Assembly (NCBI GenBank): GCA_943359335.1
Contig: CALRHC010000001.1
Coordinates: 22,466-86,465 of the forward strand
Source of the DNA: Candidatus Yanofskybacteria bacterium
GTDB taxonomy: Bacteria; Patescibacteriota; Minisyncoccia; JACQLN01
DNA: 64,000 nucleotides
Direction of reading: 5' to 3'
Positions within the stretch are counted from its first letter, which is position 1. Each line of letters begins with the position of its first letter. The notes below the pieces were generated by a model. It made no database searches. It was not told the DNA's origin and saw only the letters and a program-made list of their open reading frames with translations. The position numbers and the translations under genes are program-made. Shown one piece after another: positions 2,929-56,170 of the stretch.

Positions 2929-2987
2929 GTATTGTAGGCTTATGCTTAAGAATCTGTTCTTTAACTTTTAACTTCGAAAGGATAATT

Positions 2988-3374
2988 ATGGAAACTCCTT
3001 CCGTTGTAATGAATGAAGTTCAGGGGGAATTGTTTTTATTGAAAATGCTATTGAGTAATCTTAAGGCGGCGGAATTATTTATTTCTGCCGGTGTTGAAAT
3101 GGCGGATGCGTTAGTTGATTTATATCCTGCTGCCGATACAGTAGTTACAGAAAAGATGCGGCCCAAGACAATAGAATTTTTTAGATCGTTCGATAGGTCT
3201 ATGAATGCTCTTTCTAAGGATTTTCCAAAAGACTTAATCAAACAAGTCGAGAGTAGAGTAACTATTTTGGAAAAAACAACTACAGAAGGTTTGATAGATC
3301 AATCATCTAATGTTGGCACAGTACAAGGATCCGGAACTAATATTCATGATCCCGACCATACTGCAGAGTTGTAG
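2988..3374 (+). CDS. hypothetical protein (128 aa)
   Basis: ORF with ATG start 7 nt after an A-rich/GGA region; no recognisable motif; moderately elevated GC. Confidence 0.35.
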   Translation: METPSVVMNEVQGELFLLKMLLSNLKAAELFISAGVEMADALVDLYPAADTVVTEKMRPKTIEFFRSFDRSMNALSKDFPKDLIKQVESRVTILEKTTTEGLIDQSSNVGTVQGSGTNIHDPDHTAEL

Positions 3375-3458
3375 TTACTGTTTCGTCCCTAATAAAATGG
3401 GGACGATTTTTTTGTCTTCAAAAATTAGCCCGAGTAAAATCTAAAAATCACATTATAT

Positions 3459-3487
3459 TTGACATATAGTCAAATATTTGCTTTAAT
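3459..3487 (+). promoter_or_regulatory. sigma-70-type promoter (TTGACA-17-TTTAAT) upstream of lipoprotein gene
   Basis: TATATTTGACATATAG shares a 12-nt core with the promoter at 1783. Confidence 0.4.
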
Positions 3488-3539
3488 TTACACTCGTGTT
3501 CCTTGATTTTTTACTTTAATACCTTAAGTGGAGGTTGCA

Positions 3540-5474
3540 ATGATTCGTCGTCTGCTTTGTCTTTTTGCTATTTTGCTAGGCTTAAACGCCTGCGATAGCA
3601 AACGTGATGCGAACAAGATTTTGTCGCCAAATGTGGATGAAGAAGTGGTGGTCGCCCAAACGGAAAAAGAAGATACATCTTCTTGGGATTTAACCAAGGA
3701 TGTGTCTCTAGATTCTGTGCTGGCTATGCCAGTAGGTACAAAGATGTATTTTCGTACGGCTTTCGTCGGTAAGGTTTTGGAAGATTTCGAAGTCACTTTA
3801 GGTTATGGCAAAGTCGTATATGACCTCACTGCGCCGATGCCAGTGATACACTTGATAGCTTCCGACTCGAGGCTAATCGCTTTGGGTGGAGTATCTCACG
3901 GTATGAGTGGATCCCCAGTTTTTACCAAGGACGGCAAGGTCGGTGCGTTATCCATGAGTTTCGATGAGCAGACTGAGGACAAGAACATTGCTTTTTTTGC
4001 GACGTCGATTGAATGGATGAGGAAGGAAATTCCCAACAAGGAAATCAGGCTGGGTAAGCCGGTGGTTTGGAGGGGGTACATTGTAAGGCCATTGGCTCTT
4101 CCTCTGCTGATGTCTGGCGTTAACAATCATCTGATGAATGCGGCCATTCTCGAATACGCCGACAAACTGGGCGACGGCAATCTCAATATGTTATCGGCAT
4201 CAGGTTCGGCCGGAGCCGGTGGTAATATTGAACAGAAGTTTGAAGATGGTAGCCCGTTGACCGGAGTATTATTTACGGGAGACGAGGTGATCATCGGTGC
4301 CACAGGAACGGCAACCGATGTCCGAGGCAATAACATTTTCGGTTTCGGCCATCCCTGGTGGGGTAACGGGCAGACTTCGTTAGCCATGGTGGCCACCGAA
4401 ATTCTGGCCGAGGTTAGTGGTCCGTCGCCGTTCAAGTTAGCCAGGTTGGGCAATAAGGTTCTTGGGGAAATTATTTACGACCGTATGCCTGGAGTTGGGG
4501 GAGTTTTGGGCCAAATGCCCGAAATGATTCCCTTGGTTTTTAACGCTTCAATTTTTGGCGAGAAGGCGTTAAGCATGAATCATCAAATGTCTCCGGTAGT
4601 TTTATCCGGTTTCGACATGTTCATGCAGGCCATAATGGCCGGTACCACACTTCTTTCTCCTCTGGCCAATAGGCTAGACAATGCCAACGACAAAAGTTTG
4701 ATAGTTCGGACCAAAATCGACTTTAAGGGTTCTAACTTGAAGGTTGATTTTGAAAGGACTTATGCCCAGCCTCATGCTGGTGTATTGGATTTGATGAATG
4801 GTCCTTTGTTTGGTTTTGTTAATGCCTATTTAGGTTCTGTGGGTAACGATTATGCTGATCTGAAAGTTAGCAACATCCAAATGAATGTGGATGTTGTGGA
4901 CGAACCTTTGTTCGCAATCATACAAGGCTTCGAGGCGGATAGTGTCGTTACCGCTGGTAGTGATTTGCCAGTTAAGATCAGTTTAAGGGTTGGAGCAACT
5001 AAAGACGTCGATCTTAACTTGGCTTTTGCTGTGCCGGATAGTTTTGAGGCCGGCATCTATAGCCTGACGGTGGGTTCACTCGCAGCTTTGGAATATTCTT
5101 CCTATGAACCTTCCGATCCGAGCAAGTTTAAAAATCTGGAAGATGTGTTTGAAGACATCAACGAGGTTGATGGTAGTACCACTTTAAAGCTGGTTTTGTC
5201 TTTCAACGAGCCTTTGCCAGTGGAGGCCCCAGATAGCTTGGTGATTGTTGTGCCTGATACAGTAGTTGTGCCTGCTGATACAGTAAAGGTGGATTCACTG
5301 ATGCCTGTGCCACCACCAGTGATGGGTGGTGGTTCGATTGTGTCCTCACCAGGATTGCTACCTCCTTATCAAGAATCTATTGTCTATAACGATAAAGCCA
5401 GTATGGAAAAAAAGATAGACTGGGTTTTGCAGTATGATACAGGTACGGTTAAGGTGAAGGCGATGAAGAAGTAA
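3540..5474 (+). CDS. exported lipoprotein with SpoIVB/S55-like serine-peptidase motif (GMSGSP...GK.GA) and C-terminal Pro/Val-rich repeats
   Basis: ATG at 3540 preceded by GGAGG (the ORF-track start at 3528 is a GTG inside the SD); signal peptide MIRRLLCLFAILLGLNAC with a lipobox Cys; motif GGVSHGMSGSPVFTKDGKVGALSMSF resembles the catalytic-Ser region of peptidase S55; GC about 45-50% versus about 34% genome. Confidence 0.45.
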   Translation: MIRRLLCLFAILLGLNACDSKRDANKILSPNVDEEVVVAQTEKEDTSSWDLTKDVSLDSVLAMPVGTKMYFRTAFVGKVLEDFEVTLGYGKVVYDLTAPMPVIHLIASDSRLIALGGVSHGMSGSPVFTKDGKVGALSMSFDEQTEDKNIAFFATSIEWMRKEIPNKEIRLGKPVVWRGYIVRPLALPLLMSGVNNHLMNAAILEYADKLGDGNLNMLSASGSAGAGGNIEQKFEDGSPLTGVLFTGDEVIIGATGTATDVRGNNIFGFGHPWWGNGQTSLAMVATEILAEVSGPSPFKLARLGNKVLGEIIYDRMPGVGGVLGQMPEMIPLVFNASIFGEKALSMNHQMSPVVLSGFDMFMQAIMAGTTLLSPLANRLDNANDKSLIVRTKIDFKGSNLKVDFERTYAQPHAGVLDLMNGPLFGFVNAYLGSVGNDYADLKVSNIQMNVDVVDEPLFAIIQGFEADSVVTAGSDLPVKISLRVGATKDVDLNLAFAVPDSFEAGIYSLTVGSLAALEYSSYEPSDPSKFKNLEDVFEDINEVDGSTTLKLVLSFNEPLPVEAPDSLVIVVPDTVVVPADTVKVDSLMPVPPPVMGGGSIVSSPGLLPPYQESIVYNDKASMEKKIDWVLQYDTGTVKVKAMKK

Positions 5475-5554: not shown

Positions 5555-6871
5555 ATGTTGCAAAATCCGTTTAGTTTAATATTCGATATTTTGGGAGTAG
5601 TCTCACACCATATTTGGTTATGGGGTTGGGTTTTTTTGCCGATTCTTTTGGCACCATTTTTATGGGATGCCTATATGTACCACATTCGTATTAAAACTTT
5701 AAAAAAATTTAAATGGCAGATGTTGGAATTTCGCTTACCGCCAGATGTGGAAAAAAGCCCATTGGCAATGGAACAGGTTTTAGCAATCTTACAAAGCACT
5801 CTTTTTAAAGGTGGTTGGTGGAAACGCTATGTGGAAGGGCGCGTTCAAGAATGGTTTAGTTTAGAAATAACTTCTTTCGAAGGCGAATTACATTTTTATA
5901 TTCGAACACTTGGGCAATTTAGAAATTTAGTTGAGGCGGCAATTTATGCACAATATCCACAAGCCGAAATTTTTGATGCTGAAGATTATACGGCAAACGT
6001 TCCAGCAATAATCCCAAACGAAACCCACGACCTTTTTGGTTGCGAACTTAAATTGGCACGTGAAGATGGTTACCCAATACGCACCTATAAAGATTTCGAA
6101 TTAAAGACCGAAAGTAGCAAAGAAGGTGGTTCTAATATTTCTTTGGTGGATCCTTTGGCGGGCATAGCCGAAACAATGACGCGTTTAAAAAAAGGTGAAC
6201 AAGCTTGGATTCAAATCGCTATAAGACCAACCGATGACGGTTGGAAAAAAGTAGCAATGGAGACGGTTTTAAAATTAGTCGGGCGCCCTAAAAAAGAAGT
6301 GCCACAGGGTTCTTATATGTGGGCGTTACTTAAAAAAGAATTATCCGATTTTGCTAAGGGAGCAGTGCAAGCGCCTTTTAAAACTCCGGAATTTGAACCT
6401 TTTGAATGGGGTTCACCAAAAAGTGATAAGCCTCACTCATTAATGCAGTTTCTTACTTCGGGTGAAAAAGAAATTATAGAGGCAATAGAAAGAAAAACCT
6501 CTAAAGTGGGTTTTGAGACAGTTATTAGAGTTGTGTATATAGGTACTAAAGAAGCTTTTTATATACCAACATTTTTTCAGGTGGCTTCCGGTTTTAACCA
6601 GTTTAGTACACAAAATTTAAATTCTATAAAAAGAGATGGCGCCACATTAACTGCAGGAAAATTTCCTTTTAAAAAATTTAAAGAAATGCAAAAGAAGAAG
6701 TGGATGTTATATAAATATAGAATTCGCGGCCGACCAGATACTATGTTTGTAATGAATACAGAAGAACTGGCAACACTTTACCACTTCCCAGGACGAGTTG
6801 TTATGGCGCCAAGCTTGCCTAGAGTTCAAGCTAAAAAAGGCGAACCACCAGCAGGATTACCCAGTTATTAG
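5555..6871 (+). CDS. hypothetical membrane protein (2 N-terminal TM segments plus large soluble domain), putative partner of the downstream ATPase
   Basis: 438 aa; hydrophobic N-terminus LIFDILGVVSHHIWLWGWVFLPILLAPFLW; no catalytic motif recognised. Confidence 0.5.
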   Translation: MLQNPFSLIFDILGVVSHHIWLWGWVFLPILLAPFLWDAYMYHIRIKTLKKFKWQMLEFRLPPDVEKSPLAMEQVLAILQSTLFKGGWWKRYVEGRVQEWFSLEITSFEGELHFYIRTLGQFRNLVEAAIYAQYPQAEIFDAEDYTANVPAIIPNETHDLFGCELKLAREDGYPIRTYKDFELKTESSKEGGSNISLVDPLAGIAETMTRLKKGEQAWIQIAIRPTDDGWKKVAMETVLKLVGRPKKEVPQGSYMWALLKKELSDFAKGAVQAPFKTPEFEPFEWGSPKSDKPHSLMQFLTSGEKEIIEAIERKTSKVGFETVIRVVYIGTKEAFYIPTFFQVASGFNQFSTQNLNSIKRDGATLTAGKFPFKKFKEMQKKKWMLYKYRIRGRPDTMFVMNTEELATLYHFPGRVVMAPSLPRVQAKKGEPPAGLPSY

Positions 6872-6896
6872 CTTCATTAGCTTTCAGCTTCTTTAG
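6868..6896 (+). repeat. left arm (AGCTTCATTAGC type) of the intergenic palindromic repeat family
   Basis: TTAGCTTCATTAGCTTTCAGCTTCTTTAG; its complementary arm lies at 7258..7289, beyond the four-helix-bundle gene. Confidence 0.6.
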
Positions 6897-6903
6897 ATAT
6901 TAG

Positions 6904-7266
6904 ATGATAAATTCTTACAAAGATTTAATTGTTTGGCAAAAATCATTGAAGTTATCATTGTTGGCTTATGAACTTACCGAAAAATTTCCAAAAGAAGAAA
7001 TCTATGGCTTAACATCGCAAATAAGAAGATCGGCAGTATCAATACCGTCTAATATAGCTGAAGGAAGATATAGAGGGACAAAAAATGATTTTACTCAGTT
7101 TTTAAGAATAGCTTATTCTTCGGGCGCAGAATTAGAGACACAAATAGAAATAGCTAGAAATTTATCAAAGACAAAAGATTTAGATTATTCAAAAATAGAT
7201 ATTTTAATAGTAGAGGTTATGAAGATGTTAAATGTTATGATAAGAAATATAAATCCTAAAAGCTAA
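6904..7266 (+). CDS. four-helix-bundle protein (23S rRNA intervening-sequence protein family)
   Basis: 120 aa, LIVWQKSLKLSLLAYELTEKFPKEE...QIRRSAVSIPSNIAEG..F..IAYSSGAELETQIEIA is the signature of this family. Confidence 0.75.
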   Translation: MINSYKDLIVWQKSLKLSLLAYELTEKFPKEEIYGLTSQIRRSAVSIPSNIAEGRYRGTKNDFTQFLRIAYSSGAELETQIEIARNLSKTKDLDYSKIDILIVEVMKMLNVMIRNINPKS

Positions 7267-7289
7267 AGAAGCTAGTGAAGCTAAAAGCT
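7258..7289 (+). repeat. right arm (GCTAATGAAGCT type) of the palindromic repeat family, ending at the ATG at 7290
   Basis: AGCTAAAGAAGCTAGTGAAGCTAAAAGCT|ATG; same arm precedes ATGs at 15601, 20835, 23430, 33591 and 36412(-). Confidence 0.6.
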
Positions 7290-9512: not shown

Positions 9513-10616
9513 ATGTCAAATAGTGTTGATCGAAAGGTATACATAGGAATGTCGGGCGGGGTTGATAGCTCTGTTGCCGCTTTGTTGTTAAAAAACGAAG
9601 GCTATAATGTAACCGGTGTTTTTATGAAAAACTGGAGCGATCCAGCTTGGCCTTGCCCATGGGAAGAAGATCGCGCCGATGCTATGCGAGTTTGTTTAAA
9701 ACTTGGTATACCTTTCGAAACTTGGGATTTTACTAAAGAATACAAAGAAAAAGTTGTAGATTATATGATCCGCGAATACGCGGCCGGCCGAACGCCAAAC
9801 CCAGATGTAATGTGCAATAAAGAAATTAAGTTTGGTTTATTTTTTAATAAAGCCATAGAACTTGGTGCAGATTTTATTGCAACGGGACACTATGTGAGAA
9901 AAATCAAAAATCAAAAATCAAATCTCAAAAATTATGTACTCGCTCGCGCTCGCTATTTAGATAAGGATCAGTCTTACTTTCTTTGGACGCTCAAGCAGGG
10001 TCAGATAGAAAAATGTTTGTTTCCAATAGGCGAAATAGAATCTAAAGCCGAGGTTAGAAAAATTGCAGAAGGAGCAAGCCTGCCTACGGCAGGTAAAAAA
10101 GATTCGCAGGGAATTTGTTTTATGGGACCGGTAGATATAAAAGAATTTATAAAACCATTTGTTAAAAAAGAAATTGGCGATATTGTTACAACTTCTGGCC
10201 CTGGTCGGGCAAGCCAAAAAGTTGGCACGCATGGCGGTTTAGATTTTTATACTATCGGCCAACGCAAAGGTGTCGGCATTGGCGGCACGGGACCATATTA
10301 TGTTGCTAAAAAAGATTACGAAACTAATACACTAATTGTTTCACCTGTTACAGATATGCAATCATTGGAATCCAAATCGCTTACAGCTTCCGATATAAAT
10401 TTTATAGATGAGCGATTTGTCCCGAGTGCAGCCGAGGGAATCCAAATTCAAGCTTCTATTCGTTATCGCCAAGAACCAGTCTCGGCAGTATTGTCGAAAT
10501 TAGAAAACAATAAATACAAGGTAGAATTTGAAAAACCAGTTCGTGCCGTATCTTCCGGCCAATCAGTTGTGTTTTATAATGGAGACGAAATGTTGGGTGG
10601 TGGCGTGATAGAATAA
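9513..10616 (+). CDS. mnmA: tRNA-specific 2-thiouridylase MnmA
   Basis: PP-loop SGGVDSSVAA, catalytic Cys region, C-terminal barrel; contains a low-complexity insert KIKNQKSNLKN encoded by (ATCAAAA)3. Confidence 0.85.
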   Translation: MSNSVDRKVYIGMSGGVDSSVAALLLKNEGYNVTGVFMKNWSDPAWPCPWEEDRADAMRVCLKLGIPFETWDFTKEYKEKVVDYMIREYAAGRTPNPDVMCNKEIKFGLFFNKAIELGADFIATGHYVRKIKNQKSNLKNYVLARARYLDKDQSYFLWTLKQGQIEKCLFPIGEIESKAEVRKIAEGASLPTAGKKDSQGICFMGPVDIKEFIKPFVKKEIGDIVTTSGPGRASQKVGTHGGLDFYTIGQRKGVGIGGTGPYYVAKKDYETNTLIVSPVTDMQSLESKSLTASDINFIDERFVPSAAEGIQIQASIRYRQEPVSAVLSKLENNKYKVEFEKPVRAVSSGQSVVFYNGDEMLGGGVIE

Positions 10617-15520: not shown

Positions 15521-15600
15521 ATCATCAGCTTCACTAGCTTCATTAGCTTATTAGGATATCAAACCTAAAAACTAAAGAAGCTAAAAGCTAAAAGCTAAAC
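15521..15600 (+). repeat. intergenic palindromic repeat (AGCTTCACTAGCTTCATTAGC ... GAAGCTAAAAGCTAAAAGCTAAAC|ATG)
   Basis: Member of the six-copy family; fills the whole rpsK-rpsD spacer and ends at the rpsD ATG. Confidence 0.6.
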
Positions 15601-16206
15601 ATGTATCAATCAACTTGTAAAAAATGCAGAAGACTAGGTTATAAGGTGTGTGATTCCGCTAAATGCGGTATGGTTCGCAAACCTTATCCACCAGGACAGC
15701 ACGGAAAAAATATTCGTCGCCGTCTTTCTGAATATGGAACCCAGCAAGCCGAAAAACAAAAGCTTAAACTTATTTATGGTTTAAGAGAAAAACAATTTAA
15801 AAAATATTTTGATACGGCTTCTAAAAAAAGCGGTATTACTCCTCAAATAATGATGGAGCTTTTAGAACGAAGATTAGACAATGTTATTTTTAGATTAGGA
15901 CTTGCTCCAACCAGACGTGCCTCAAGGCAATTAGTTGGGCATGGTCATATCACAATAAATAGCAAAAAGGTTAGCTCACCGTCTTATTCTGTGAGCCCAG
16001 GGGAATTAATAGATATTAAAGAATCCAGCAAAGCTAAAAAGACTTTTTCTGAAACCAAAACAATTTTAAAGAAATTTAATCCACCAAGATGGTTAGAGTT
16101 AGATAAAGAAAATCTTTCCGGAAAAGTGATTAGCGTACCAGATAAAGAATTTTTAGCTGGATTACCGGTAGAGGTTTCAAAAGTTTTGGAATATTATTCA
16201 AGATAA
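15601..16206 (+). CDS. rpsD: 30S ribosomal protein S4
   Basis: N-terminal Cys cluster CKKCRRLG..C..C, YPPGQHG, S4 domain. Confidence 0.9.
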   Translation: MYQSTCKKCRRLGYKVCDSAKCGMVRKPYPPGQHGKNIRRRLSEYGTQQAEKQKLKLIYGLREKQFKKYFDTASKKSGITPQIMMELLERRLDNVIFRLGLAPTRRASRQLVGHGHITINSKKVSSPSYSVSPGELIDIKESSKAKKTFSETKTILKKFNPPRWLELDKENLSGKVISVPDKEFLAGLPVEVSKVLEYYSR

Positions 16207-17021: not shown

Positions 17022-17372
17022 ATGCGACACGTATCTAAGAAAGGCAGAAAATTCGGCAGGGTAAAGAAAGTAAGAAAGGCTTTGTTAAAGAGCTTGTGTT
17101 TAGCTTTGATTTTAAGAGGTAGAATCAGGACCACCGAAGCTAAAGCTAAAGAATTAGGTACGGTTATTTCACCATTTATCACTAAGGCTAGAAAAGGAGG
17201 ACTTGCCAATATAAAACTTATTGCTAAATTTTTACCAGAACAAGCTGTTAGTAAGTTAGTTAAAGAAATTGGTCCTAAGTATCAAGATAGAAACGGCGGA
17301 TACACCAGAATAATTAAATTGGGAGAAATGAGAAAAGACGGCGCTAGAATGTGTTTAATTGAATTTGTTTAG
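17022..17372 (+). CDS. rplQ: 50S ribosomal protein L17
   Basis: MRHVSKKGRKFGR...GGYTRIIKLG.R.GD. Confidence 0.9.
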   Translation: MRHVSKKGRKFGRVKKVRKALLKSLCLALILRGRIRTTEAKAKELGTVISPFITKARKGGLANIKLIAKFLPEQAVSKLVKEIGPKYQDRNGGYTRIIKLGEMRKDGARMCLIEFV

Positions 17373-17390
17373 ACCACGTAAAATACAAAC

Positions 17391-17765
17391 ATGAAAACAA
17401 ACAAAGAATACAAATTTGATGCAAAAGGAAAAATACTTGGTAGACTCGCTACCGAAGTGGCTTTGGTTTTGCGTGGCAAGGACGGTGCTGATTTTTCTCC
17501 TAATATGCCAGATCTAAGCAGAAAAGTAACTGTTTATAATACCGATGAATTAAAATTTACTGGTAATAAGCTGGAAGACAAAAAATATCATGTTTATTCT
17601 GGCTACCCAAGCGGTATTAGAACAAGAAGACTAGAAGAACAGATGGAAAGAGATTCCAGGGAAGTTTTAAAATTGGCGGTTTATGGTATGTTACCGAAAA
17701 ACAGATTAAGAAACAGATTTATTGCCAATTTAAAATTATTAAAAAAGGGATTAAAAGGCGAATAA
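17391..17765 (+). CDS. rplM: 50S ribosomal protein L13
   Basis: KILGRLATEVALVLRGKD..., canonical L13. Confidence 0.85.
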   Translation: MKTNKEYKFDAKGKILGRLATEVALVLRGKDGADFSPNMPDLSRKVTVYNTDELKFTGNKLEDKKYHVYSGYPSGIRTRRLEEQMERDSREVLKLAVYGMLPKNRLRNRFIANLKLLKKGLKGE

Positions 17766-17771
17766 AATAAT

Positions 17772-18287
17772 ATGGCTACAAAAGTACAAGAAAAAGAAAA
17801 AATCGAAGAGGTTGTTGAGGATTTAGATACCGAAAAGGAAGAGGCTACTGTTTTTAATACAGATAAAAAAGATTCTAAAAAATATTTTGAAGCAGTTGGC
17901 CGTAGAAAACGATCTATCGCTAGAGTCAGAATTTTTACAACTAACCCTAAAGAATCTGCTTCGCAAGGAGGTTTTGTTGTTAACGATAAAACATTAAAAG
18001 ATTATTTTGGTAGCACCCCAGCTTTTGTGGAAATGGCTTTAGAATCTTTGAACCGATTAAAAGCCTCCGATCATTTTAAAGTTTCGGTTAAGGTTAATGG
18101 TGGCGGAACAAATTCGCAAGCCGAAGCTATTCGTTTAGGTATTGCTCGGGCTTTGGTTAAATTCGATCTAAATTTTAGAAAGAAACTTAAAAAATCTGGA
18201 ATGTTACGCCGCGATCCACGTGAAAAAGAACGCCGCAAGTATGGTTTGAAGAAAGCTCGAAGAGCTCCGCAATTTTCAAAACGTTAA
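17772..18287 (+). CDS. rpsI: 30S ribosomal protein S9 (with about 40-aa acidic N-terminal extension)
   Basis: GRRKRSIARVRI...GGGTNSQAEAIRLGIARAL...RRDPREKERRKYGLKKARRAPQFSKR. Confidence 0.9.
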   Translation: MATKVQEKEKIEEVVEDLDTEKEEATVFNTDKKDSKKYFEAVGRRKRSIARVRIFTTNPKESASQGGFVVNDKTLKDYFGSTPAFVEMALESLNRLKASDHFKVSVKVNGGGTNSQAEAIRLGIARALVKFDLNFRKKLKKSGMLRRDPREKERRKYGLKKARRAPQFSKR

Positions 18288-20758: not shown

Positions 20759-20834
20759 CTTCAAAAGCTTGTTAGCTTCTTTAGCTTGGTTAGGAAAATC
20801 TAAAAGCTAATGCAGCTAATGAAGCTAAATTTTA
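20759..20834 (+). repeat. intergenic palindromic repeat (AGCTTGTTAGCTTCTTTAGCTT ... AAGCTAATGCAGCTAATGAAGCTAAATTTTA|ATG)
   Basis: Family member ending at the holB ATG. Confidence 0.6.
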
Positions 20835-22827: not shown

Positions 22828-23358
22828 ATGGAGACACAAGAATTTAAAATTAAACTAAAAGAAGTCGCTACATTTTTGGCGAACGAACTATCAAAAGTGC
22901 GCAGTAACCGTGCTTCACCAGCTTTAGTGGAAGATATATCGGTAGATTATTTTGGCAATAAGACTCCAATAAAGGGTATTGCTAGCATAAGTTCATTAGA
23001 CGCTAGAACCTTGGTTATAGAACCTTGGGATAAAAGTGCCTTGGAACCAATTGCAAAGGCTATTGCCAATGCTAGTATTGGCGCGCAACCTATTGTAGAT
23101 AGCAAAAGCGTTAGATTAAGCTTGCCACAATTAACTCAAGAGCGTAGGCAAGAACTTATAAAATTGGTTTCTCAAAAAATGGAAGAAGCAAAAATAAGAG
23201 CTCGCAGATTGCGTGATGATGCCGTAAAAAGCGCCCAGCAAGAAAAATCCGAAGATATTAAGTTTAGAAAGAAAGACGAAATCGAAAAGGCGATGAAAGA
23301 AAATAATCAGGCTTTGGAAGATTTAAAAAGTAAAAAAGAGAAAGAGTTAATGAACTAG
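22828..23358 (+). CDS. frr: ribosome recycling factor
   Basis: LSKVRSNRASPALVEDISVDYFGNKTPIKGIASIS...LPQLTQERRQELIK. Confidence 0.9.
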   Translation: METQEFKIKLKEVATFLANELSKVRSNRASPALVEDISVDYFGNKTPIKGIASISSLDARTLVIEPWDKSALEPIAKAIANASIGAQPIVDSKSVRLSLPQLTQERRQELIKLVSQKMEEAKIRARRLRDDAVKSAQQEKSEDIKFRKKDEIEKAMKENNQALEDLKSKKEKELMN

Positions 23359-23429
23359 CTTTCAGCTTCATTAGCTTTTAGGAAACTACCTATAAGCTAA
23401 CGAAGCTAACGAAGCTAACGAAGCTAATC
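23359..23429 (+). repeat. intergenic palindromic repeat (AGCTTTCAGCTTCATTAGCTTTT ... (GCTAACGAA)x3 GCTAATC|ATG)
   Basis: Left arm complementary to the right arm; right arm is a 9-bp tandem repeat; ends at the rseP ATG. Confidence 0.65.
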
Positions 23430-24509
23430 ATGACAGTTTTAATATTTTTTATTGTATTATCTGTTCTAGTTCTGGCTCATGAATATGGCCATTACATAAC
23501 TGCTAAGCGCGCCGGCGCTAAGGTGGAGGAATTTGGTTTTGGTTTTCCGCCTAAAATTTTCTCTATAAAAAGGGGCGATACTGTTTTTTCTTTTAATTTA
23601 ATTCCCTTTGGCGGTTTTGTAAAAATATTTGGTGAATCTGGCGAACACAGAAACGAAGTTGGTAGTTTTTCGTCTTTAAAAATATCTAAACGAGCTAAAA
23701 TAGTTTGTGCCGGTGTTTTTATGAACTTGGTTTTAGCCTATGTGCTATTAAGTTTCGGAAATTTAATGGGCAGGCCAATGATTTTAGATGAAACAAATAG
23801 TGCTAAAGCTACTAATATTAAAATTCAAATAACTGCACTTTCCGAAAATTCTCCCGCATCAAGTAATGGTATTAAAGTGGGTGATTCTGTTATGGGTATA
23901 AAGTTAACCGATGGCACATTAAAAACATTTCCCGAAGTTTCCGAATTTAGATCTTTTGTAGAAAGCGAAGCCGGAAAAGAAATAAATTTAGTTTTATTGC
24001 GAGGCAAAGAAAATATAGATATTAAAATTACTCCACGTGTTAACCCGCCAGAAAACGAAGGTGCTTTGGGTGTGGCTCTAGCTAAAACTGGTTTGGTTAA
24101 ATCGCCGTGGTACTTATTTTTATGGAGCGGATTAAAAGATTTAGGCTTTATGGTTTGGATGATCGGATCCGCACTACTTTTATTTTTTAAAACTTTATTT
24201 ATTGAGGGCAGGGTAATGGGTGAAATTACAGGGCCAATAGGCATAGCTTCTTTAACGGGCGAGGCTTACAACATGGGTATAGTTTATTTGTTAAATTTAG
24301 TAGCCATACTTTCTGTTAATTTGGCTATACTAAACATAATGCCTTTTCCGGCGCTTGATGGTGGCAGGTTAGTGTTTTTAATCATAGAAAAAATAAAGGG
24401 CTCGCCTTTAAGCCAAAAATTTGAAAATACAGTAAACGTTGCTGGGTTTATTTTGTTACTTGCACTAATGTTTTTTGTAACTTGGAAAGATATAGTTAAA
24501 TTTTTCTAA
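23430..24509 (+). CDS. rseP: RIP site-2 zinc metalloprotease RseP (M50)
   Basis: HEYGHYITAKRAG (HExxH), PDZ insert, C-terminal LDGG motif (FPALDGGRLVF). Confidence 0.85.
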   Translation: MTVLIFFIVLSVLVLAHEYGHYITAKRAGAKVEEFGFGFPPKIFSIKRGDTVFSFNLIPFGGFVKIFGESGEHRNEVGSFSSLKISKRAKIVCAGVFMNLVLAYVLLSFGNLMGRPMILDETNSAKATNIKIQITALSENSPASSNGIKVGDSVMGIKLTDGTLKTFPEVSEFRSFVESEAGKEINLVLLRGKENIDIKITPRVNPPENEGALGVALAKTGLVKSPWYLFLWSGLKDLGFMVWMIGSALLLFFKTLFIEGRVMGEITGPIGIASLTGEAYNMGIVYLLNLVAILSVNLAILNIMPFPALDGGRLVFLIIEKIKGSPLSQKFENTVNVAGFILLLALMFFVTWKDIVKFF

Positions 24510-24516
24510 TACTTTA

Positions 24517-24604
24517 TCAAAATATCACTCCTCGCAGACGACACGGAGGCCTCTCAATTGTAGAATCGGTCATCTCCGTGATGCTACTCGGATTGATGTT
24601 TTGA
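24517..24604 (+). ncRNA. structured RNA-like element E1 (homolog of the element at 39787..39909), starts 8 nt after the rseP stop; strand inferred
   Basis: 15-nt terminal helix TCAAAATATCACTCC/GGATTGATGTTTTGA; inner helix ACGGAG/CTCCGT; conserved joining strands TCGCAGACGAC and GATGCTACTC identical or near-identical to E2 with compensatory changes in both helices. Confidence 0.5.
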
Positions 24605-24653
24605 TTTTCATGCTATATATAAAAAGCCCCGACAAAGGTCGAGGCTTACTCTT

Positions 24654-30260: not shown

Positions 30261-30336
30261 TGGCTGTGCCCCAGGGAGTCGAACCCCGATAGCCTCCTCG
30301 TTTAGAGGTGGTGTCCTGCCATTGAACGAGGGCACA
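30261..30336 (-). tRNA. tRNA of unresolved identity with non-canonical anticodon arm (19 nt in place of 17)
   Basis: Acceptor UGUGCCC/GGGCACA (U1-A72), D-arm GUUC-AAUGGCA-GGAC, T-arm CGGGG-UUCGACU-CCCUG, encoded GCCA; anticodon region CCACCUCUAAACGAGGAGG folds only as an imperfect stem with a 5-, 7- (CUAAACG) or 9-nt loop. Confidence 0.5.
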
Positions 30337-33506: not shown

Positions 33507-33587
33507 ACACAGCTTCGTTAGTTGTTAGCTTCGTTAGCTTTTAGTAAATTTTGAAAGCTAGTGAAGCTAGAAGCTAAAAGCTAAATA
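33507..33587 (+). repeat. intergenic palindromic repeat (CAGCTTCGTTAGTTGTTAGCTTCGTTAGC ... GCTAGTGAAGCTAGAAGCTAAAAGCTAAATATTG|ATG)
   Basis: Family member ending at the recA ATG (33591). Confidence 0.6.
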
Positions 33588-33590
33588 TTG

Positions 33591-36412: not shown

Positions 36413-36497
36413 TAATTAGCTTTTAGCTTTTAGCTTTTAGCTTTTAGCTTTTTAGAAAATTCCTAACAAGCTAATGAAGCTAATGAAGCTAGTTTTA
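36413..36497 (-). repeat. intergenic palindromic repeat (minus-strand reading: TAGCTTCATTAGCTTCATTAGC ... (AGCTAAA)x5 AGCTAA|ATG of ssb)
   Basis: Five 7-bp tandem AGCTTTT units on plus; same family and same placement immediately 5' of a start codon. Confidence 0.65.
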
Positions 36498-38033: not shown

Positions 38034-39785
38034 ATGAATTCTCAAGTAGAAGATATTAAAAATCGCTTAGATATCGCCGAAGTTATTCAGGGCTATTTAA
38101 AATTGCAAAAAGCTGGTGCCAACTGGAAAGGCTCGTGCCCGTTTCATCACGAAAAGACCCCTTCTTTTGTGGTAACACCTGCTAGGCAAATTTGGCATTG
38201 TTTTGGTTGTGGTGAAGGTGGTGATGTTTTTTCGTTTGTGCAAAAAATGGAGGGTTTGGAATTTTATGATGTTTTAAAAATGTTGGCCGAAAAAGCTGGA
38301 GTTAAATTAATAAAACGCGACCAAGATGTAGAGTTGGGTTCGCAGAGAAAAAGAATTTACGAAATTTCGGAACTTGCTACAAAATTTTTTGAACGCCAGT
38401 TGTTATCAAAGCAGGGTCAGCTAGCTGGAGAATATTTAAAAGATAGAGGTGTAACCAAAGAATCTTTAATTAGTTTTAGAATTGGTTGGGCACCCGATAC
38501 TTGGCAATCATTGCATAACTTTTTAAGTAGTGAGGGTTATACCGATGATGAAATAGATAAATCGGGACTTGCAGTAAAAAGCGAAACAACGGGCGAATAT
38601 CACGATAGGTTTAGACACAGAATAATGTTTCCCATAGCCGATAGCCAAGGGCAGGTGATTGGTTTTACCGGAAGAATTTTTGAAAAAGTAAAAGGTAAAA
38701 CTGTGCACGAAGATGCGGGAAAATATGTTAATACTCCAAGTACAATTTTATACGATAAATCGCAGGCACTTTATGGTTTAGATAAATCTAGAACATATAT
38801 TAGAAACGAGGGCTGTATTTTGCTGGAAGGTACAATGGATGTTTTAATGTCGCACCAAGCTGGTGTAAAAAATGTTGCGGCAACTTGTGGTACGGCTTTT
38901 GGTGTGGGGCATGCCAGAATAATTAAAAGATACACAGAAAAATTAATGCTAGCGTTTGATGCCGATGATGCAGGAGATTCTGCTTTAAAAAAAGGTGTGA
39001 ACATGGCAATTGCTTCGGGGCTTAATGTTTCGGTAATTTCTATTCCCTCGGGTAAAGATACGGCGGACGCTGTAAAAGAAGATCCAAAACTTTGGAGCGA
39101 GTCGGTTTCAAAACCCGTGCCATACTTAGCTCATATTATAAATAGATCGCTAAAAGATTTTTCTGGAACATTGGAATCTAAAAAGAATGTTTTAGTAAAT
39201 GTTTTGCCGTTTATAAAAAGTATTGTTTCTCCGTTAGATAAAGATTATTGGTTAGAAGAACTTTCGCATAGAGTTGGTGTAGCAAGGGATGTTTTAAATT
39301 TGGAATTAAAACAATTACCTGTTCAGGATTTTAACTCCACATTACAGGCTCCCAGTATACTTTCTTCTAAGGTTATTGCTTCTCCAAAAGATTTGCCGGG
39401 TTTACGTCAAGAAGAGTATCTGCTATCTTTACTATTAAGATATCCAGACTTAAAAGGCCGCCTTGGCAATGAGGAGCTAGAATTATTCTCCCAGCCAAAC
39501 TTATTTTCGCTGGCCCAAAGTCTACTGGCAAATGACGGAACCAAAATTCCGGATTCGGCTGATTCTCGCTTGATTGCTATGAGCGAACTAATAGCCGATT
39601 TTAATATTGATCCGGAAGACGAATTTGCTAGAACTCTTGTTAGTTTAAAAAAACAAAGTTTGCAGTCTAAGCTTAAAGTTATTCAAGCCGATATTAAAAA
39701 AGCTGAAGCCGATGGCGACAGCCAAGCTTTGAATCTTTTGCTTAAGGAATTTGGCGAACTTTCTCAAAAATTATTAAATATATAA
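38034..39785 (+). CDS. dnaG: DNA primase
   Basis: Zinc-binding CPFHHEKTPSF..WHCFGCGEGGDV, TOPRIM domain (EGTMDV, LAFDADDAG). Confidence 0.9.
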   Translation: MNSQVEDIKNRLDIAEVIQGYLKLQKAGANWKGSCPFHHEKTPSFVVTPARQIWHCFGCGEGGDVFSFVQKMEGLEFYDVLKMLAEKAGVKLIKRDQDVELGSQRKRIYEISELATKFFERQLLSKQGQLAGEYLKDRGVTKESLISFRIGWAPDTWQSLHNFLSSEGYTDDEIDKSGLAVKSETTGEYHDRFRHRIMFPIADSQGQVIGFTGRIFEKVKGKTVHEDAGKYVNTPSTILYDKSQALYGLDKSRTYIRNEGCILLEGTMDVLMSHQAGVKNVAATCGTAFGVGHARIIKRYTEKLMLAFDADDAGDSALKKGVNMAIASGLNVSVISIPSGKDTADAVKEDPKLWSESVSKPVPYLAHIINRSLKDFSGTLESKKNVLVNVLPFIKSIVSPLDKDYWLEELSHRVGVARDVLNLELKQLPVQDFNSTLQAPSILSSKVIASPKDLPGLRQEEYLLSLLLRYPDLKGRLGNEELELFSQPNLFSLAQSLLANDGTKIPDSADSRLIAMSELIADFNIDPEDEFARTLVSLKKQSLQSKLKVIQADIKKAEADGDSQALNLLLKEFGELSQKLLNI

Positions 39786-39786
39786 A

Positions 39787-39909
39787 ATAAAATATCGTTC
39801 TTCGTAGACGATATGGAGCCTCTTTATTGTATCAAAAGTCTTCCTGCCTACGGCAGGTAAACTCCATACCTGCCCGCCTCTGGCGGGATGCTACTCAGAA
39901 CGATATTTT
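39787..39909 (+). ncRNA. structured RNA-like element E2 in the dnaG-rpoD spacer, homolog of E1 (24517..24604); strand inferred
   Basis: Perfect 13-bp terminal helix AAAATATCGTTCT/AGAACGATATTTT; inner helix ATGGAG/CTCCAT; extra hairpins CCTGCC-TAC-GGCAGG and CCCGCC-TCT-GGCGGG; joining strands TCGTAGACGAT and GATGCTACTC; begins 2 nt after the dnaG stop. Confidence 0.5.
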
Positions 39910-39924
39910 CTCGTAAATTTTTCT

Positions 39925-41103
39925 ATGCCAAAAAAGAAAAAGATAAAAAAAATAAAGAAATCTAAACCAAAAAAGGTTTCTAAAAAAACCTCTAAAGTTA
40001 AAAAGGCTAAGCCAAGCCATAAAGCTAAAACTCCGGTTGTTACCGAAGAAAAATTAGCCGATTTAGTTAGACGTGGTAAAAGCAGGGGTTTTATTACTGA
40101 ATCAGAAATTATTCAAACTTTTCCAAATATCGAACAAGATATTTCTGGTTTGGAGTATTTGTATACTCACTTAGAATCTATAAATATAAAAATAATTAGT
40201 GCGCAGGAGAGACTTAAAACTTTAGAACCTGGCAAAGAAAAAACAAAGAAATCGGATCATGTGGGTTTAGGACCTTTGTTTGATTCTGTTCAAATATATT
40301 TACGCGAAATTGGCAGAGTGCCGCTTTTGCGTGGTCCAGAAGAAGTTGAACTTGCTAAAAGAATAGAAAAAGGTGATGCGGAAGCTAGGCAAAAACTAAC
40401 CCAAGCAAATTTGCGTTTGGTGGTTTCGATTGCTAAAAAATATGTTGGTAGAAGTTCGCATTTAACACTGCTCGATTTAATTCAAGAAGGAAATATTGGT
40501 TTAACCAAAGCCGTAGAAAAATTTGATTACACCAAAGGTTATAAATTTTCTACTTATGCCACTTGGTGGATTCGCCAAGCAGTAACTCGCGCTTTAGCCG
40601 ACCAAGCCAGAACAATTCGTATTCCGGTACACATGGTGGAAACGATTTCTAAATACACACAGGTAAAAAGGAGATTGCTTCAAGATCTTGGCCGAGAACC
40701 TTTAGCCGAAGAAATTGCTCAAGAAATGGATATGGATGTAACCAAAGTTAGGCACATTCAAAAAATTACACAAGAAGCAGTATCGTTAGAATCTCCAGTG
40801 GGCGATAGTGACGAAGACAGTACACTTGGCGAACTTATAGAAGACGAAAAAACTTTATTGCCTTCGCAAGTAGCGGCTCAACAATTATTACGCGATCAAA
40901 TTAAAATGATAATAGACGATCTTTCGCCACGCGAACAAAAAATATTGCAGATGCGTTTTGGTTTGGAAGATGGCGCCACACACACTTTAGAAGAAGTGGG
41001 TAAAGAGTTTGGTGTAACTCGCGAACGTATTAGGCAGATCGAAGCCAAAGCTTTAGACAAAATACGTGGCCACGAGAGGATTCATAAATTGAGGGAGTAT
41101 TAA
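39925..41103 (+). CDS. rpoD: primary RNA polymerase sigma factor RpoD (Lys-rich N-terminus replacing region 1.1)
   Basis: Region 1.2 [12 protein letters not shown], 2.x [34 protein letters not shown], 3.0 [13 protein letters not shown], 4.2 [24 protein letters not shown]; dnaG-rpoD synteny. Confidence 0.9.
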
Positions 41104-41163: not shown

Positions 41164-43254
41164 TTACTCTTTGCCAAGGAATTTTTTCCAGCCAGGGAAA
41201 TCCTTATAGAAATAATATGGATTACCCGGAAGTTTTGGATCATTTCTATATGATCTTGTATACATAGGTCCTGAGATGATGTTCAGCTTTATCGCCGCTC
41301 TAGAAGCTTCTTTCCATGTTTTGTACTTAATGGATCCACCCAAGAATATAATCCAGCCAGGGAAATCTTTATAAGTCTCATCCGGATTACTTGGGAGTCT
41401 CTCATCTTTTTTGTAGTATCTTTGATACTTGGGTCCAGATGTGATGCCTAGAGATATGGCCGCTACTCCTGCCTCTTGCCAAGTCGGATATCTAACAGTT
41501 CTGTCTAAGAATACTGACCATCCCGGAAAGTTTTGGTAAGTAATTCTAGGTATTGATGGTAGCTTTCTATCTTTTTTATATTCTCCACTTTTATAACCAG
41601 ATGATGTTTTGATGCTCAACTTTACCGCCGCTCTAGAAGCTTCTTGCCAAGTTGGGTAAAAAATATTTTGTAAGAATTCTCCATATCCAGGAAAATCAGG
41701 ATAGGTACTGTTTGGATTTGATGGTAGCCTAGGGTCTTCCTTGTATCTCTCGTTCTTCTTGTAGTCTGTCGTATCTCTAATACCCAACTTTATCGCCGCT
41801 CTAGAAGCTTCTTGCCATGTCGGATACACATTTTCAGCAGTACGCTTGGGACCGCCCTTTCCTAAAAAAACATTCCAACTAGGAAAGTTTTTATAGGTAT
41901 ATGATGGATCTGGTGGTAACTTGTTATCTTTGCGATACATCTCTCGGTATTCGGATACTTTTTTAAGACCAAGTTTTTGTGTGGCTTGTGACGCTTCTTC
42001 CCATGTAGTATAGAATTCTCTTTCGCAATGATCTAGAACTTTCATTAAATCCACTACCTCATCAGAGAAAGTGAACTCAAATCCCTTTCCAGACACTTCA
42101 AACTTTTGTCTAGTATAACCTTCATGTTCTATCTCTTTTTTAGAAGTGTATTCTTCGTGAAGATTGGAAATTTTGTTCATCATCTCAAGTACTAGCTGAA
42201 TACGCTCAAGATTTCCCACAAAGTCTAGAACTATGAGCTTATCTTTTCCAGGACGAAGTCCGCGGCCAAGTTGTTGCCGAAAGACAGTCAAAACTCCAGT
42301 AACTCGGCAGAATGCAACCAATCCAACAGATGGAACATTAACTCCTTCGTTGAAAGCATTTACTGCACATACCCTGCGAACCGTTCCGTTATGCAAAGCT
42401 CCGAGAACTTTTTGGTTCTTACTCCAAGAGTCGTTCTTGTCTTTGCCTTTGCGTGAATGAAATGTTTCTGAAAGTTCAAGTGATTTACTGAGTCTTTCAG
42501 CGTGGGTAATTGAGTCGCAAAATACAACTGCTTTTTCAAGATAACCATTTATGATTCTCGTGATTTCTTCGTCACGTTTCCTTATAAAGATTCGGCGGTT
42601 AACTTCTGCCATGGTAAAACGTTTCTTGCCTTCATGGATTTCAGCTGTAATTTCTTGAAGTACTTTATCGTCCAAACTCTGGTCGGTAATAACGTGATAC
42701 TCAATTCTAGGAAGCCAACTACGGGCAATAGCTTCTTCTAGAGTTATGTTAATCACTTCGGGACCAAAGATGCTACGAATGTCTGCTCCATCTTCGCGGT
42801 CAGGTGTAGCAGTAAGACCGAGCTTAGCTCCGGTGAAGTAATTAGTTACTGGTCGATACGTTTCAGCTTCCGAGTGATGGGCTTCGTCTACGATGATCAA
42901 ACCAAAATGATTTCGTGACCATTGTTTAAGATTGTTTCTCATGGTCTGCCAAGTGGCAAAAACAATATCTCCTTCTTTTGCTCCGTTCTTTGACATGCCA
43001 TTATATATAACCATTCTAGTTTTTCTTTCATCAAAAACTAGGCCGAATTCATCAAGGGCGTGTTTCAGAATATGGTTGTTATGAACCAAAAACAAGGTTT
43101 TTTTGGGACGAAATTTCTTTGTAACAAATATAGCTGTTAGGGTTTTGCCCAAACCAGTAGCCATTACAACCAATGCTCTTTTAGAGTGACTACGTAATTC
43201 TTTCAGAGCGGCTTTAGTGGCTAGCTCTTGGTAAACACGAGGTTCTATCTTCAA
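41164..43254 (-). CDS. SF2 DEAD/DEAH-box (ResIII-type) helicase with five C-terminal tandem repeats of about 55 aa
   Basis: Walker A MATGLGKT, DEAH box IVDEAHH, helicase-C QQLGRGLR; repeats YPTWQEASRAAIKLGI...YK.D.RLPSNP..TY.DFPGW..FLG x5; GC about 41%. Confidence 0.65.
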   Translation of the reverse strand: MKIEPRVYQELATKAALKELRSHSKRALVVMATGLGKTLTAIFVTKKFRPKKTLFLVHNNHILKHALDEFGLVFDERKTRMVIYNGMSKNGAKEGDIVFATWQTMRNNLKQWSRNHFGLIIVDEAHHSEAETYRPVTNYFTGAKLGLTATPDREDGADIRSIFGPEVINITLEEAIARSWLPRIEYHVITDQSLDDKVLQEITAEIHEGKKRFTMAEVNRRIFIRKRDEEITRIINGYLEKAVVFCDSITHAERLSKSLELSETFHSRKGKDKNDSWSKNQKVLGALHNGTVRRVCAVNAFNEGVNVPSVGLVAFCRVTGVLTVFRQQLGRGLRPGKDKLIVLDFVGNLERIQLVLEMMNKISNLHEEYTSKKEIEHEGYTRQKFEVSGKGFEFTFSDEVVDLMKVLDHCEREFYTTWEEASQATQKLGLKKVSEYREMYRKDNKLPPDPSYTYKNFPSWNVFLGKGGPKRTAENVYPTWQEASRAAIKLGIRDTTDYKKNERYKEDPRLPSNPNSTYPDFPGYGEFLQNIFYPTWQEASRAAVKLSIKTSSGYKSGEYKKDRKLPSIPRITYQNFPGWSVFLDRTVRYPTWQEAGVAAISLGITSGPKYQRYYKKDERLPSNPDETYKDFPGWIIFLGGSIKYKTWKEASRAAIKLNIISGPMYTRSYRNDPKLPGNPYYFYKDFPGWKKFLGKE

Positions 43255-55684: not shown

Positions 55685-55687
55685 AAA

Positions 55688-55727
55688 CAAAACATCCAGC
55701 TCGCCTAGAGAGCTGGATGTTTTTGTT
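55688..55727. terminator. bidirectional terminator AACATCCAGCTC-GCCTAGA-GAGCTGGATGTT with A-run/T-run; 3' end of both rnhA (+) and rnpB (-)
   Basis: 12-bp perfect stem; core CCAGCT...CCTAGA...AGCTGG repeated at 56221. Confidence 0.7.
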
Positions 55728-56170
55728 AAGAAAGTCGTAAGCCGAATTCTGTCTTGCCTCAACGGCAAGGATAATCATCTGTCTGGGATTGTTATTGCTA
55801 ACAACCTCTGGCGACTCTTCCTTAATAATTTAGATTACTAAGGACACGGTCTTGCACCAAGTGGGGTTTACAACTATTTAGTATTGCTACTAAACAGAAT
55901 CGCGTTTGACGCGACACTTTTCACCTTTAGACTCAATTTTTACATTGAGCTTAGTATAGTCTCTGTTGCATAGGCTCACGGAATCAGCTGTCATCAATGA
56001 ACCTATATCCAATAAAGGACACTTTCCCTGGGCTTGAACCTAATTTTCATTAGATCTGCTCCCGGTTGCATTTCGCAACCACTTGTTTCCTCCGTTTATT
56101 CAACGGATTCGGTGTTCGGACTTTCCTCAATCCATTTTTAGATGAATTGCGATTATCTCACTTTCTTAAC
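55725..56170 (-). ncRNA. rnpB: RNase P RNA (bacterial type)
   Basis: Minus strand carries the universal GAGGAAAGUCCGAACACC (P4 5' strand), ACAGAAUUCGGCUUAC (P4 3' strand) and a perfect P1 GUUAAGAAAGU/ACUUUCUUAAC; minus-strand promoter TTGACT-17-TATCAT at 56205..56177; no ORF of substance. Confidence 0.85.

Follow-up and report, generated by a model that had tools for sequence, protein, structure and literature searches.

A dispersed and probably mobile hairpin repeat in the dnaG-rpoD spacer of a Candidatus Yanofskybacteria genome

Why should a 121-nt closed hairpin stand between the gene for primase, dnaG, and the gene for the primary sigma factor, rpoD? The question is raised by a 64,000-nt stretch of contig CALRHC010000001.1 from a Candidatus Yanofskybacteria bacterium (hereafter the window, to which all coordinates refer unless a relative is named; AT-rich, with a G+C of 36%), in which the two genes, identified from the open reading frame (ORF) list and Pfam domains (dnaG, 38034-39785, plus strand, with Zn_ribbon_DnaG, DNAG_N and Toprim; rpoD, 39925-41103, plus strand), are separated by a 139-nt spacer containing the hairpin element E2 (39789-39909). 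The nearest named RpoD relatives are Sungbacteria- and Portnoybacteria-like metagenome-assembled genomes. In the rpsU-dnaG-rpoD operon of E. coli, an internal terminator precedes dnaG, promoters lie inside dnaG, and RNase E processes the message between dnaG and rpoD; there too, a structured non-coding sequence stands between the two genes in a co-transcribed unit. The original prediction took E2 for an expanded copy of a second element in the window, E1, and proposed that it serves as an operon-internal terminator, attenuator or processing site that sets the dnaG:rpoD ratio. Comparison with rpoD and rseP loci fetched from relatives (given below by their L numbers) disposes of the tempting idea of a conserved dnaG-rpoD regulator: E2 belongs to a lineage-specific, previously undescribed family of hairpin repeats of very small groundwater bacteria, labelled F1 here and new to a known class of elements. 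The family is probably a non-autonomous mobile repeat comparable to REP/REPIN, ERIC and Correia elements, which is co-transcribed with its neighbours and read through.

The spacer element and its family

The predicted coordinates and anatomy of E2 proved correct. The element follows the dnaG stop codon (TAA, 39783-39785), ends 15 nt before the rpoD ATG (39925) and is closed by a perfect 13-bp stem (P1), whose 5' arm AAAATATCGTTCT (39789-39801) and 3' arm AGAACGATATTTT (39897-39909) form an exact inverted repeat; these and the following features are given on the plus strand. Within it, the family consensus fold places P2 (GTAG, 39804-39807, with CTAC, 39891-39894), which is extended beyond a bulged A by the pairs C39809-G39890 and G39810.U39889 (P2b); the 3' strand of P2b and P2 (TG and CTAC, 39889-39894) lies within the conserved motif ATGCTACTC. 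Further in, alignments place P3 (TATGGAG, 39812-39818, with CTCCATA, 39862-39868) and the conserved apical region CCTCTTTATTGTATCAAAAGTCTT (39819-39842), which carries the family motifs CCUCU ... RGUCWU and a weak AU stem (P4) whose closing pairs 36-56 and 37-55 covary. What E2 has beyond plain copies is, by alignment, exactly two 19-nt blocks. Insertion 1, CCTGCCTACGGCAGGTAAA (39843-39861), follows the conserved GTCTT and consists of the hairpin CCTGCC-TAC-GGCAGG (39843-39857) plus TAAA; insertion 2, CCTGCCCGCCTCTGGCGGG (39869-39887), follows CTCCATA and consists of CCTG and the hairpin CCCGCC-TCT-GGCGGG (39873-39887). Both GC-rich hairpins are thus where they had been predicted; in terms of the family fold, the two blocks fall in loops or at mismatches, and neither was found in any other F1 copy. 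Once they are removed, E2 takes up the family structure, at -29.4 kcal/mol; intact, it folds at -45.6 kcal/mol on the plus strand (z -5.6 to -6.7) and at -54.3 kcal/mol on the minus strand (z -7.7 to -8.2), values equalled by none of 200 shuffles on either strand.

The plain copy with which E2 was paired, E1 (24518-24603, plus strand; ~24518-24604 by nhmmer), starts 8 nt past the stop of the M50 protease gene rseP (23430-24509), and a bidirectional terminator separate from it comes next (24624-24647). Two covariance models (R1 and R2) were used to search the loci of relatives for F1. E1 scores 109 bits, and E2 scores 66 bits (E ~1e-15) whether or not E2 itself was used in building the models; nhmmer, the covariance models and the two 19-nt blocks together bear out the reading of E2 as an enlarged version of E1.

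F1 itself is a non-coding hairpin of ~85-90 nt with the conserved core YCG-GYAG-ACGA-YAYGGAG-CCUCU...RGUCWU-CUCCRUR-AUG-CURC-UC, and its fold, derived by hand, was returned de novo by RNAalifold. P1 varies in sequence and measures 10-15 bp; a single mismatch often interrupts it, four or five pairs short of the core. It encloses a small internal loop (YC/UC), P2 (G-Y-A-G/C-U-R-C) and a bulged A; next come one C-G and one G.U pair, then P3 (YAYGGAG/CUCCRUR) beyond an A.A mismatch, an internal loop rich in pyrimidines and finally the weak AU stem-loop with the conserved CCUCU...RGUCWU. In an alignment of 11 copies, pairing holds in 86% of cells and both sides have changed in 17 of the 27 pairs, a degree of covariation reached by none of 500 shuffles, whilst controls with slid partners pair in only 34-47%. 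P2 covaries as GUAG/CUAC, GCAG/CUGC and ACAG/CUGU, and the TATGGAG/CTCCATA of E2 as the CACGGAG/CTCCGTG of E1-type copies. Conservation is greatest in the apical region and P3 and falls away in the outer arms, where a trend towards CATCAYYCC/GGRRTGATG at the inner end is the sole common part. The copies fall into two sequence subfamilies, A (TCGYAGACGA...ATGCTRCTC) and B (TCGCTC...TCGCTC): in subfamily A, the core is bounded by G(T/C)AG (39804-39807 in E2) and its complement (39891-39894), for which subfamily B has GCTC. Kink-turn and C/D-box readings of the ACGA/AUG loop were set aside by inspection, as the strand rules are not satisfied, and a small ORF on either strand was rejected on the grounds that start codons are not conserved.

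Nearly identical cores occur at different loci on three contigs. The cores of E1 and of E3, the copy between polX and an ogt-like gene (L083), match at 57 of 58 positions, and a copy in L106 (9862-9948) has the same central 46 nt as E1 and E3 bar one change; the closing stems of all three are unrelated. Where sites are orthologous, the closing stem has changed no more than the core, and different stems on near-identical cores are therefore not simply the product of fast drift. Possible explanations are that the GYAG-bounded core moves alone, that gene conversion acts between old copies, or that selection on the core is very strong.

Two observations concern the first insertion of E2 and its surroundings. 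Firstly, insertion 1 recurs as an identical 19-mer at 10079-10097 (blastn-short E 2.8e-5), within an mnmA-like ORF (tRNA 2-thiouridylase gene, 9513-10616), where it encodes SLPTAGK in GC-rich codons atypical of the genome; this suggests a templated patch or gene conversion. Secondly, in an independent assembly of this organism from Logan, the contig breaks off within E2 (position 1 of L002 is window position 39838), immediately on the 5' side of GTCTT and of the first GC hairpin. The break could be repeat-induced or could reflect population heterogeneity, such as inversion or the presence and absence of the hairpin.

Dispersal and the fate of sites among relatives

The family comprises about 16 copies at 11 distinct gene junctions on eight related Parcubacteria contigs, the strong copies scoring 45-109 bits against the covariance models. 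Occupied sites are the 3' side of rseP (E1) and dnaG-rpoD (E2 and L105), adk-map in L088 and L105, ydjM-ruvX, GT2-galT and galT-tpiA in L088, L097 and L103, the 3' side of rpoD in L097, mreB-like-holB in L107, frr-rseP and proS-mreB in L106, and polX-ogt in L083, a Hainich groundwater contig that was the one extra copy recovered by an exact-pattern scan of metagenome contigs. Where a genome has F1, its density ranges from 1 to 4 copies per 21 kb. For two of the copies, the next gene is convergent, which leaves nothing downstream of them. A cis-regulatory leader or riboswitch was rejected, since the 11 junctions are unrelated and their downstream genes form no coherent set.

F1 was not found in the loci of L089 and L094 (86-87% RpoD identity) or of L108 and L110 (73%), nor at distant Saccharibacteria-like dnaG-rpoD loci from a genome collection. 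Searches of Rfam 15 at gathering scores reported only RNase P RNA and one tRNA in the window; at E<=10, the E1 and E2 regions gave only chance-level matches to unrelated families, and at E<=0.01, L083, L088, L089 and L097 gave only tmRNA. BLAST against phage and plasmid collections returned no F1 match, a pattern scan of viral contigs yielded three chance matches and no F1 element, and nothing relevant on such repeats was found in the literature on Patescibacteria and Parcubacteria.

Sites filled in one lineage are empty in another. In the window and in L084, adk runs 4 nt into map and ydjM 4 nt into ruvX (ATGA); L088 and L105 have a 90-nt F1 copy at these junctions. The proS-mreB spacer is 6 nt in the window as opposed to 178 nt with an F1 copy in L106, and the galT-tpiA junction is empty in the window. 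At the site of E1 in the closest relative, L107, whose RseP is 94% identical, the spacer is 40 nt and holds only the terminator, and therefore the whole of E1, P1 included, is extra and its P1 is not an old terminator. The notion that an F1 core had lodged in the loop of a pre-existing terminator is accordingly rejected for E1, as L107 keeps the terminator with no element there.

The same comparison at dnaG-rpoD, which had been named as one check on the original prediction, yields an unstable picture. In three further lineages, with RpoD identities of 87%, 84% and 73% (L094, L103 and L108), dnaG and rpoD overlap by 4, 8 and 29 nt, and the spacer is therefore derived. Of the closest relatives, at 96-97% identity, L105 has a plain F1 copy in sense orientation, whose outer stem is recognisably that of E2 (AAGAAAAYATC/GATRTTTTCTT, with one compensated change) and which is followed by a 45-nt conserved leader. 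L084 and L091 have exactly the arms of E2, but what these enclose is inverted, and a different hairpin stands in place of the central motifs. Here the minus strand gives a model score of 49.7 bits and the plus strand one of 18.4, and the reverse-complement alignment has a z of 14.5. L088, L089 and L097 carry different structured inserts. Such flipping, decay and loss among near relatives would not be expected of a ratio-setting device, and the suggestion that E2 is dedicated to the dnaG:rpoD ratio also sits poorly with the 11 unrelated junctions at which its family occurs. Unlike in the E. coli operon, to whose signals it is not homologous, E2 is not conserved even in near relatives, and the ancestral arrangement in the clade is one of overlapping genes with no spacer.

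Other inserts at this locus deserve description in their own right. A reading of the L088 spacer as a further expanded E2 has no statistical support (alignment z 0.8), although the spacer contains a similar CCTGCC...GGCAGG hairpin. In L097 and L089, the dnaG-rpoD spacer is filled by a second repeat family, F2, with conserved ends CCCC-GTAGTAGAA ... TTCACTAC-GGGG and a highly variable interior of 9-60 nt; copies lie at 4415-4492 and 9861-9893 in L097, 6622-6654 (minus strand) in L103, 10172-10243 and 11895-11972 in L105, 9149-9221 in L106 and ~9790-9850 in L089, and F2 was found neither in the window nor, as a match, in Rfam. Three relatives have a conserved leader of ~40 nt (..AACTATTCATTT.ATTCATAGAAAAATATG) before rpoD, and in L105 it also precedes ydjM, beside an F2 copy (L088, 9955-10000; L105, 2725-2762 and 10245-10286; L097, 9895-9932). 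This leader, not found in the window or L084, may be a portable promoter or start-region cassette.

Probable transcription through the spacer

How, then, is rpoD expressed behind a hairpin of this size? If E2 were an operon-internal intrinsic terminator or attenuator, its alternative GC hairpins would decide whether polymerase gains access to rpoD. Some features lend themselves to such a device: the P1 of F1 shares the A-run/stem/U-run layout of the genome's own bidirectional terminators, the P1 part of R1 matches those terminators, and the inserted hairpins can form locally or pair with each other (the 5' CCTGCC of insertion 2 with the GGCAGG of insertion 1) in folds lying within 0.2 kcal/mol (-45.4 vs -45.6). 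However, a conserved F1 core of ~60 nt takes the place of the 3-9-nt loop of the genuine terminators, the hairpin extends over 121 nt, the stem is AU-rich at its base, where it adjoins the U run, and this run, instead of being free, pairs with the A run of the 5' arm. None of this accords with intrinsic termination, which calls for a short G+C-rich stem of 5-14 bp, a small loop and an unpaired U run directly behind it. No terminator-like site was called in 39786-39924, and consensus promoter and terminator scans around both E2 and E1 stayed at chance level. The GC hairpins are unique to this genome and were not found in the orthologous copies of L105 and L084. Moreover, plain copies stand 8-20 nt ahead of the essential genes map, ruvX and rpoD, with no room for a promoter, where efficient termination would presumably be lethal. 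Taken with the empty terminator scan, these promoter-less essential genes speak against the proposed terminator or attenuator, which we regard as highly improbable.

The remaining part of the original prediction, concerning the route to rpoD, has fared better. No rpoD promoter is obvious, promoter-like counts in and after E2 being those expected from shuffled sequence, and the 15-nt gap between E2 and rpoD holds no Shine-Dalgarno-like or promoter-like site. Because copies precede promoter-less essential genes and no terminator is called, E2 would normally be read through; if so, rpoD would depend on transcription from upstream of dnaG, and with promoter-like counts at chance level, read-through from dnaG is the most likely means of its expression. 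Copies inside operons likewise imply, as far as gene order can tell, co-transcription with the flanking genes. The predicted fold of E2 is self-contained and leaves the A/U-rich start region of rpoD unpaired, and no Shine-Dalgarno-like sequences were seen at the gene starts examined in these genomes. A free start region that calls for no such sequence may be why insertions between formerly coupled genes are tolerated. A side effect of E2 at the RNA level, on processing or stability, is possible.

Lack of promoter room bears equally on the idea that F1 is an independent small RNA gene, perhaps antisense to the operon, or a trans-acting, protein-binding decoy. The antisense strand is indeed the better folder and presents AAAGAGG as its conserved loop, but the rpoD ATG is only 15 nt away from E2, and the other copies leave 7-20 nt, promoter-like matches are at chance level, and there is no conserved small ORF, the starts differing between subfamilies; we give this idea very little credence.

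Probable mobility, a possible RNA function and neighbouring repeats

The observations above are most readily accommodated by a mobile repeat, and we infer that F1 moves, that it is read through and that it has no dedicated regulatory role. F1 would have spread into the few bases past stop codons in a subclade of Parcubacteria (Patescibacteria); the dnaG-rpoD copy would be a secondary insertion into an ancestrally overlapping, co-expressed gene pair, and E2 in this genome would later have acquired its two GC-rich 19-nt hairpins at loop positions. Transcribed within the dnaG-rpoD message, it would fold on itself and be read through. It might move as a single-stranded hairpin, with the enzyme supplied by a gene at some other place; RAYT-like Y1 transposases are candidates.

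Palindromic repeats tagged with GTAG are known as repetitive extragenic palindromes (REP) and their inverted pairs (REPIN), associated with the REP-associated tyrosine transposases, or RAYT (PMC3733652, PMC3116915). F1 resembles them as a short non-coding hairpin repeat that lies behind coding regions, whether the flanking genes run in one direction or converge, that is plausibly transcribed and that covaries at stem positions. In subfamily A, G(T/C)AG ... CU(A/G)C tags stand inverted at the ends of the core, like a head-to-head dimer, and a sister genome has RAYT-like Y1 (HUH) genes. F1 differs in that its centre is most conserved and its outer stem least, whereas in REPINs the REP arms are conserved and the spacer between them varies; in that its GYAG tags pair with each other, whereas REP tags are unpaired (PMC3733652); in that its halves are not clear self-contained palindromes; and in its host, a Patescibacterium, outside the phyla listed in PMC3733652. 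The sister genome (L106, Hainich H52) has two paralogous RAYT-like Y1/HUH genes, 38% identical and within 15 kb (2985-3776 and 17158-17832), which match NF047646 at 39 bits (E ~6e-10), below its cut-off of 80, with HUH and Y motifs present. A RAYT-like fragment also lies at 1-190 of L084, and a protein search with a 62-aa RAYT fragment returned no match.

A second comparison is with the ERIC (IRU) and Correia (NEMIS) repeats, imperfect palindromes of ~100-150 nt in transcribed intergenic regions with filled and empty sites (PMC2229807). ERIC repeats are co-transcribed and affect the upstream mRNA according to orientation, and the 107- and 155-bp forms of Correia, which are RNase III substrates, differ by an internal block (PMC2229807), much as E2 differs from E1. 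Such orientation-dependent effects on mRNA, via RNase E or RNase III, are a known feature of the class (PMC2229807). F1 has no sequence similarity to either, no conserved terminal inverted repeat and no clear TA target duplication, and the additions to E2 are two 19-nt GC hairpins in one genome rather than a recurrent long form. Measured against classical miniature inverted-repeat transposable elements (MITEs), F1 shows multi-copy presence/absence polymorphism but not their conserved terminal inverted repeats. An integron attC origin, which would call for R''/R' core sites (RYYYAAC ... GTTRRRY) in a cassette array beside an integrase, was also rejected: the F1 stem ends in ...GTTCT/AGAAC... 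or otherwise, and the neighbours are housekeeping genes, not cassettes.

Several points weigh against mobility and must be set beside this account. Firstly, the filled and empty pairs at adk-map, ydjM-ruvX, rseP 3', proS-mreB and frr-rseP reveal no clean target duplication, the gene ends and flanks having diverged; the termini are the least conserved part of F1, unlike those of classical MITEs; and genome-wide copy number is extrapolated from ~400 kb of related sequence. Secondly, no transposase is linked to F1: no RAYT-like gene was found within the 64-kb window, and a check of repeats flanking the L106 RAYT-like genes found no F1, the second gene, which sits where the window has tRNA genes, being bracketed by direct copies of AAAAAGGACCGCCCTTTT and the other having no intergenic flanks. 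Thirdly, copies at all 11 junctions lie 0-16 nt past a stop codon and have the orientation of the gene before them, three lineages have a copy at galT-tpiA, and the loops are conserved, all of which would also fit a selected RNA function. The GC skew on the element strand is +0.10 to +0.17 at every locus, and orientation is consequently inseparable from replication direction.

That selected function would be a cis-acting RNA module past stop codons, an intercistronic or 3'-UTR hairpin, which might stabilise the upstream message, offer a processing site for RNase III or RNase E, uncouple the translation of adjacent genes or tune the dnaG:rpoD ratio, and which would be compatible with a mobile origin. 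Beyond the uniform position and orientation, the repeated filling of galT-tpiA and the conserved unpaired motifs on covarying stems, it could draw on the effects that Correia and ERIC repeats exert on mRNA (PMC2229807), on the E2 insertions, which respect the helices, on the sole antisense copy (L084/L091), which is the one without the central motifs, and on P2b, whose G.U is invariant in the sense strand (11/11) and which, with a U.G in P4, favours that strand. The strand asymmetry otherwise runs the other way. In 14 of 16 copies, the more stable fold is that of the antisense strand, whose consensus energy on identical alignment columns is -37.4 as against -29.6 kcal/mol, counter to the G-rich skew of the sense strand. 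Intermediates between covarying pairs mostly read C.A on the sense strand (G.U on the antisense), roughly 16 against 5 of the reverse, although several of those positions are probably inherited rather than independent. In E2, canonical P3 has a probability of only ~11% in the sense ensemble; the closest relatives lack copies at orthologous sites, and the genes served have no common function. On balance, a selected module seems unlikely, if appreciably less so than a terminator or a small RNA gene.

A bolder version of the mobile repeat would make F1 and F2 a REPIN-like system, in which the G(T/C)AG-bounded core is moved as single-stranded DNA by a RAYT-like Y1 enzyme, the antisense fold is what is preserved, the core flips via short inverted repeats, and the loops take templated patches such as the 19-mer common to E2 and mnmA. 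We hold this to be unlikely, somewhat more so than the RNA module; were it true, a REPIN-like replicator, domesticated or persistent, would be shaping operon spacing in genomes thought to be repeat-poor. Whatever its means of movement, F1 provides a usable covariance model for a structured repeat family in the streamlined genomes of the Candidate Phyla Radiation, where repeats are thought rare and yet may here break assemblies and inflate screens for 'intergenic RNA motifs'. Its filled and empty sites are markers for strain-level evolution, and its conserved core, variable stem and strand-asymmetric fold pose a puzzle as to how such elements move.

The window holds further features of note. 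A third lineage-specific intergenic repeat consists of hairpins of reiterated GAAGCTAA(Y)/TTAGCTTC units, present in many spacers including frr-rseP (6856-6903, 7251-7286, 15527-15602, 20795-20830, 23350-23429, 33513-33588 and 36416-36494), and the motif occurs at orthologous spacers in L106 and L107. Beyond rpoD, an SNF2/ResIII helicase ORF (41164-43254), of which L084 and L105 have a shorter orthologue and L088 none, contains four diverged tandem coding repeats of 165-168 nt (41255-41826, minus strand) that correspond to Pfam INT_rpt units. At 30261-30336 (minus strand), beside tRNA-Gly(GCC), ARAGORN calls a tRNA-Phe with the anticodon AAA, an odd or doubtful tRNA given that the Rfam gathering score reports only tRNA-Gly. 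Finally, the RNase P RNA (class A, 145 bits; 55723-56168, minus strand) is convergent with a protein gene, with which it shares the terminator ACATCCAGCT/AGCTGGATGT; the stem of this terminator (55690-55723; 55686-55727) resembles some F1 P1 stems, such as GCATCAGCT/AGCTGATGC in L103.

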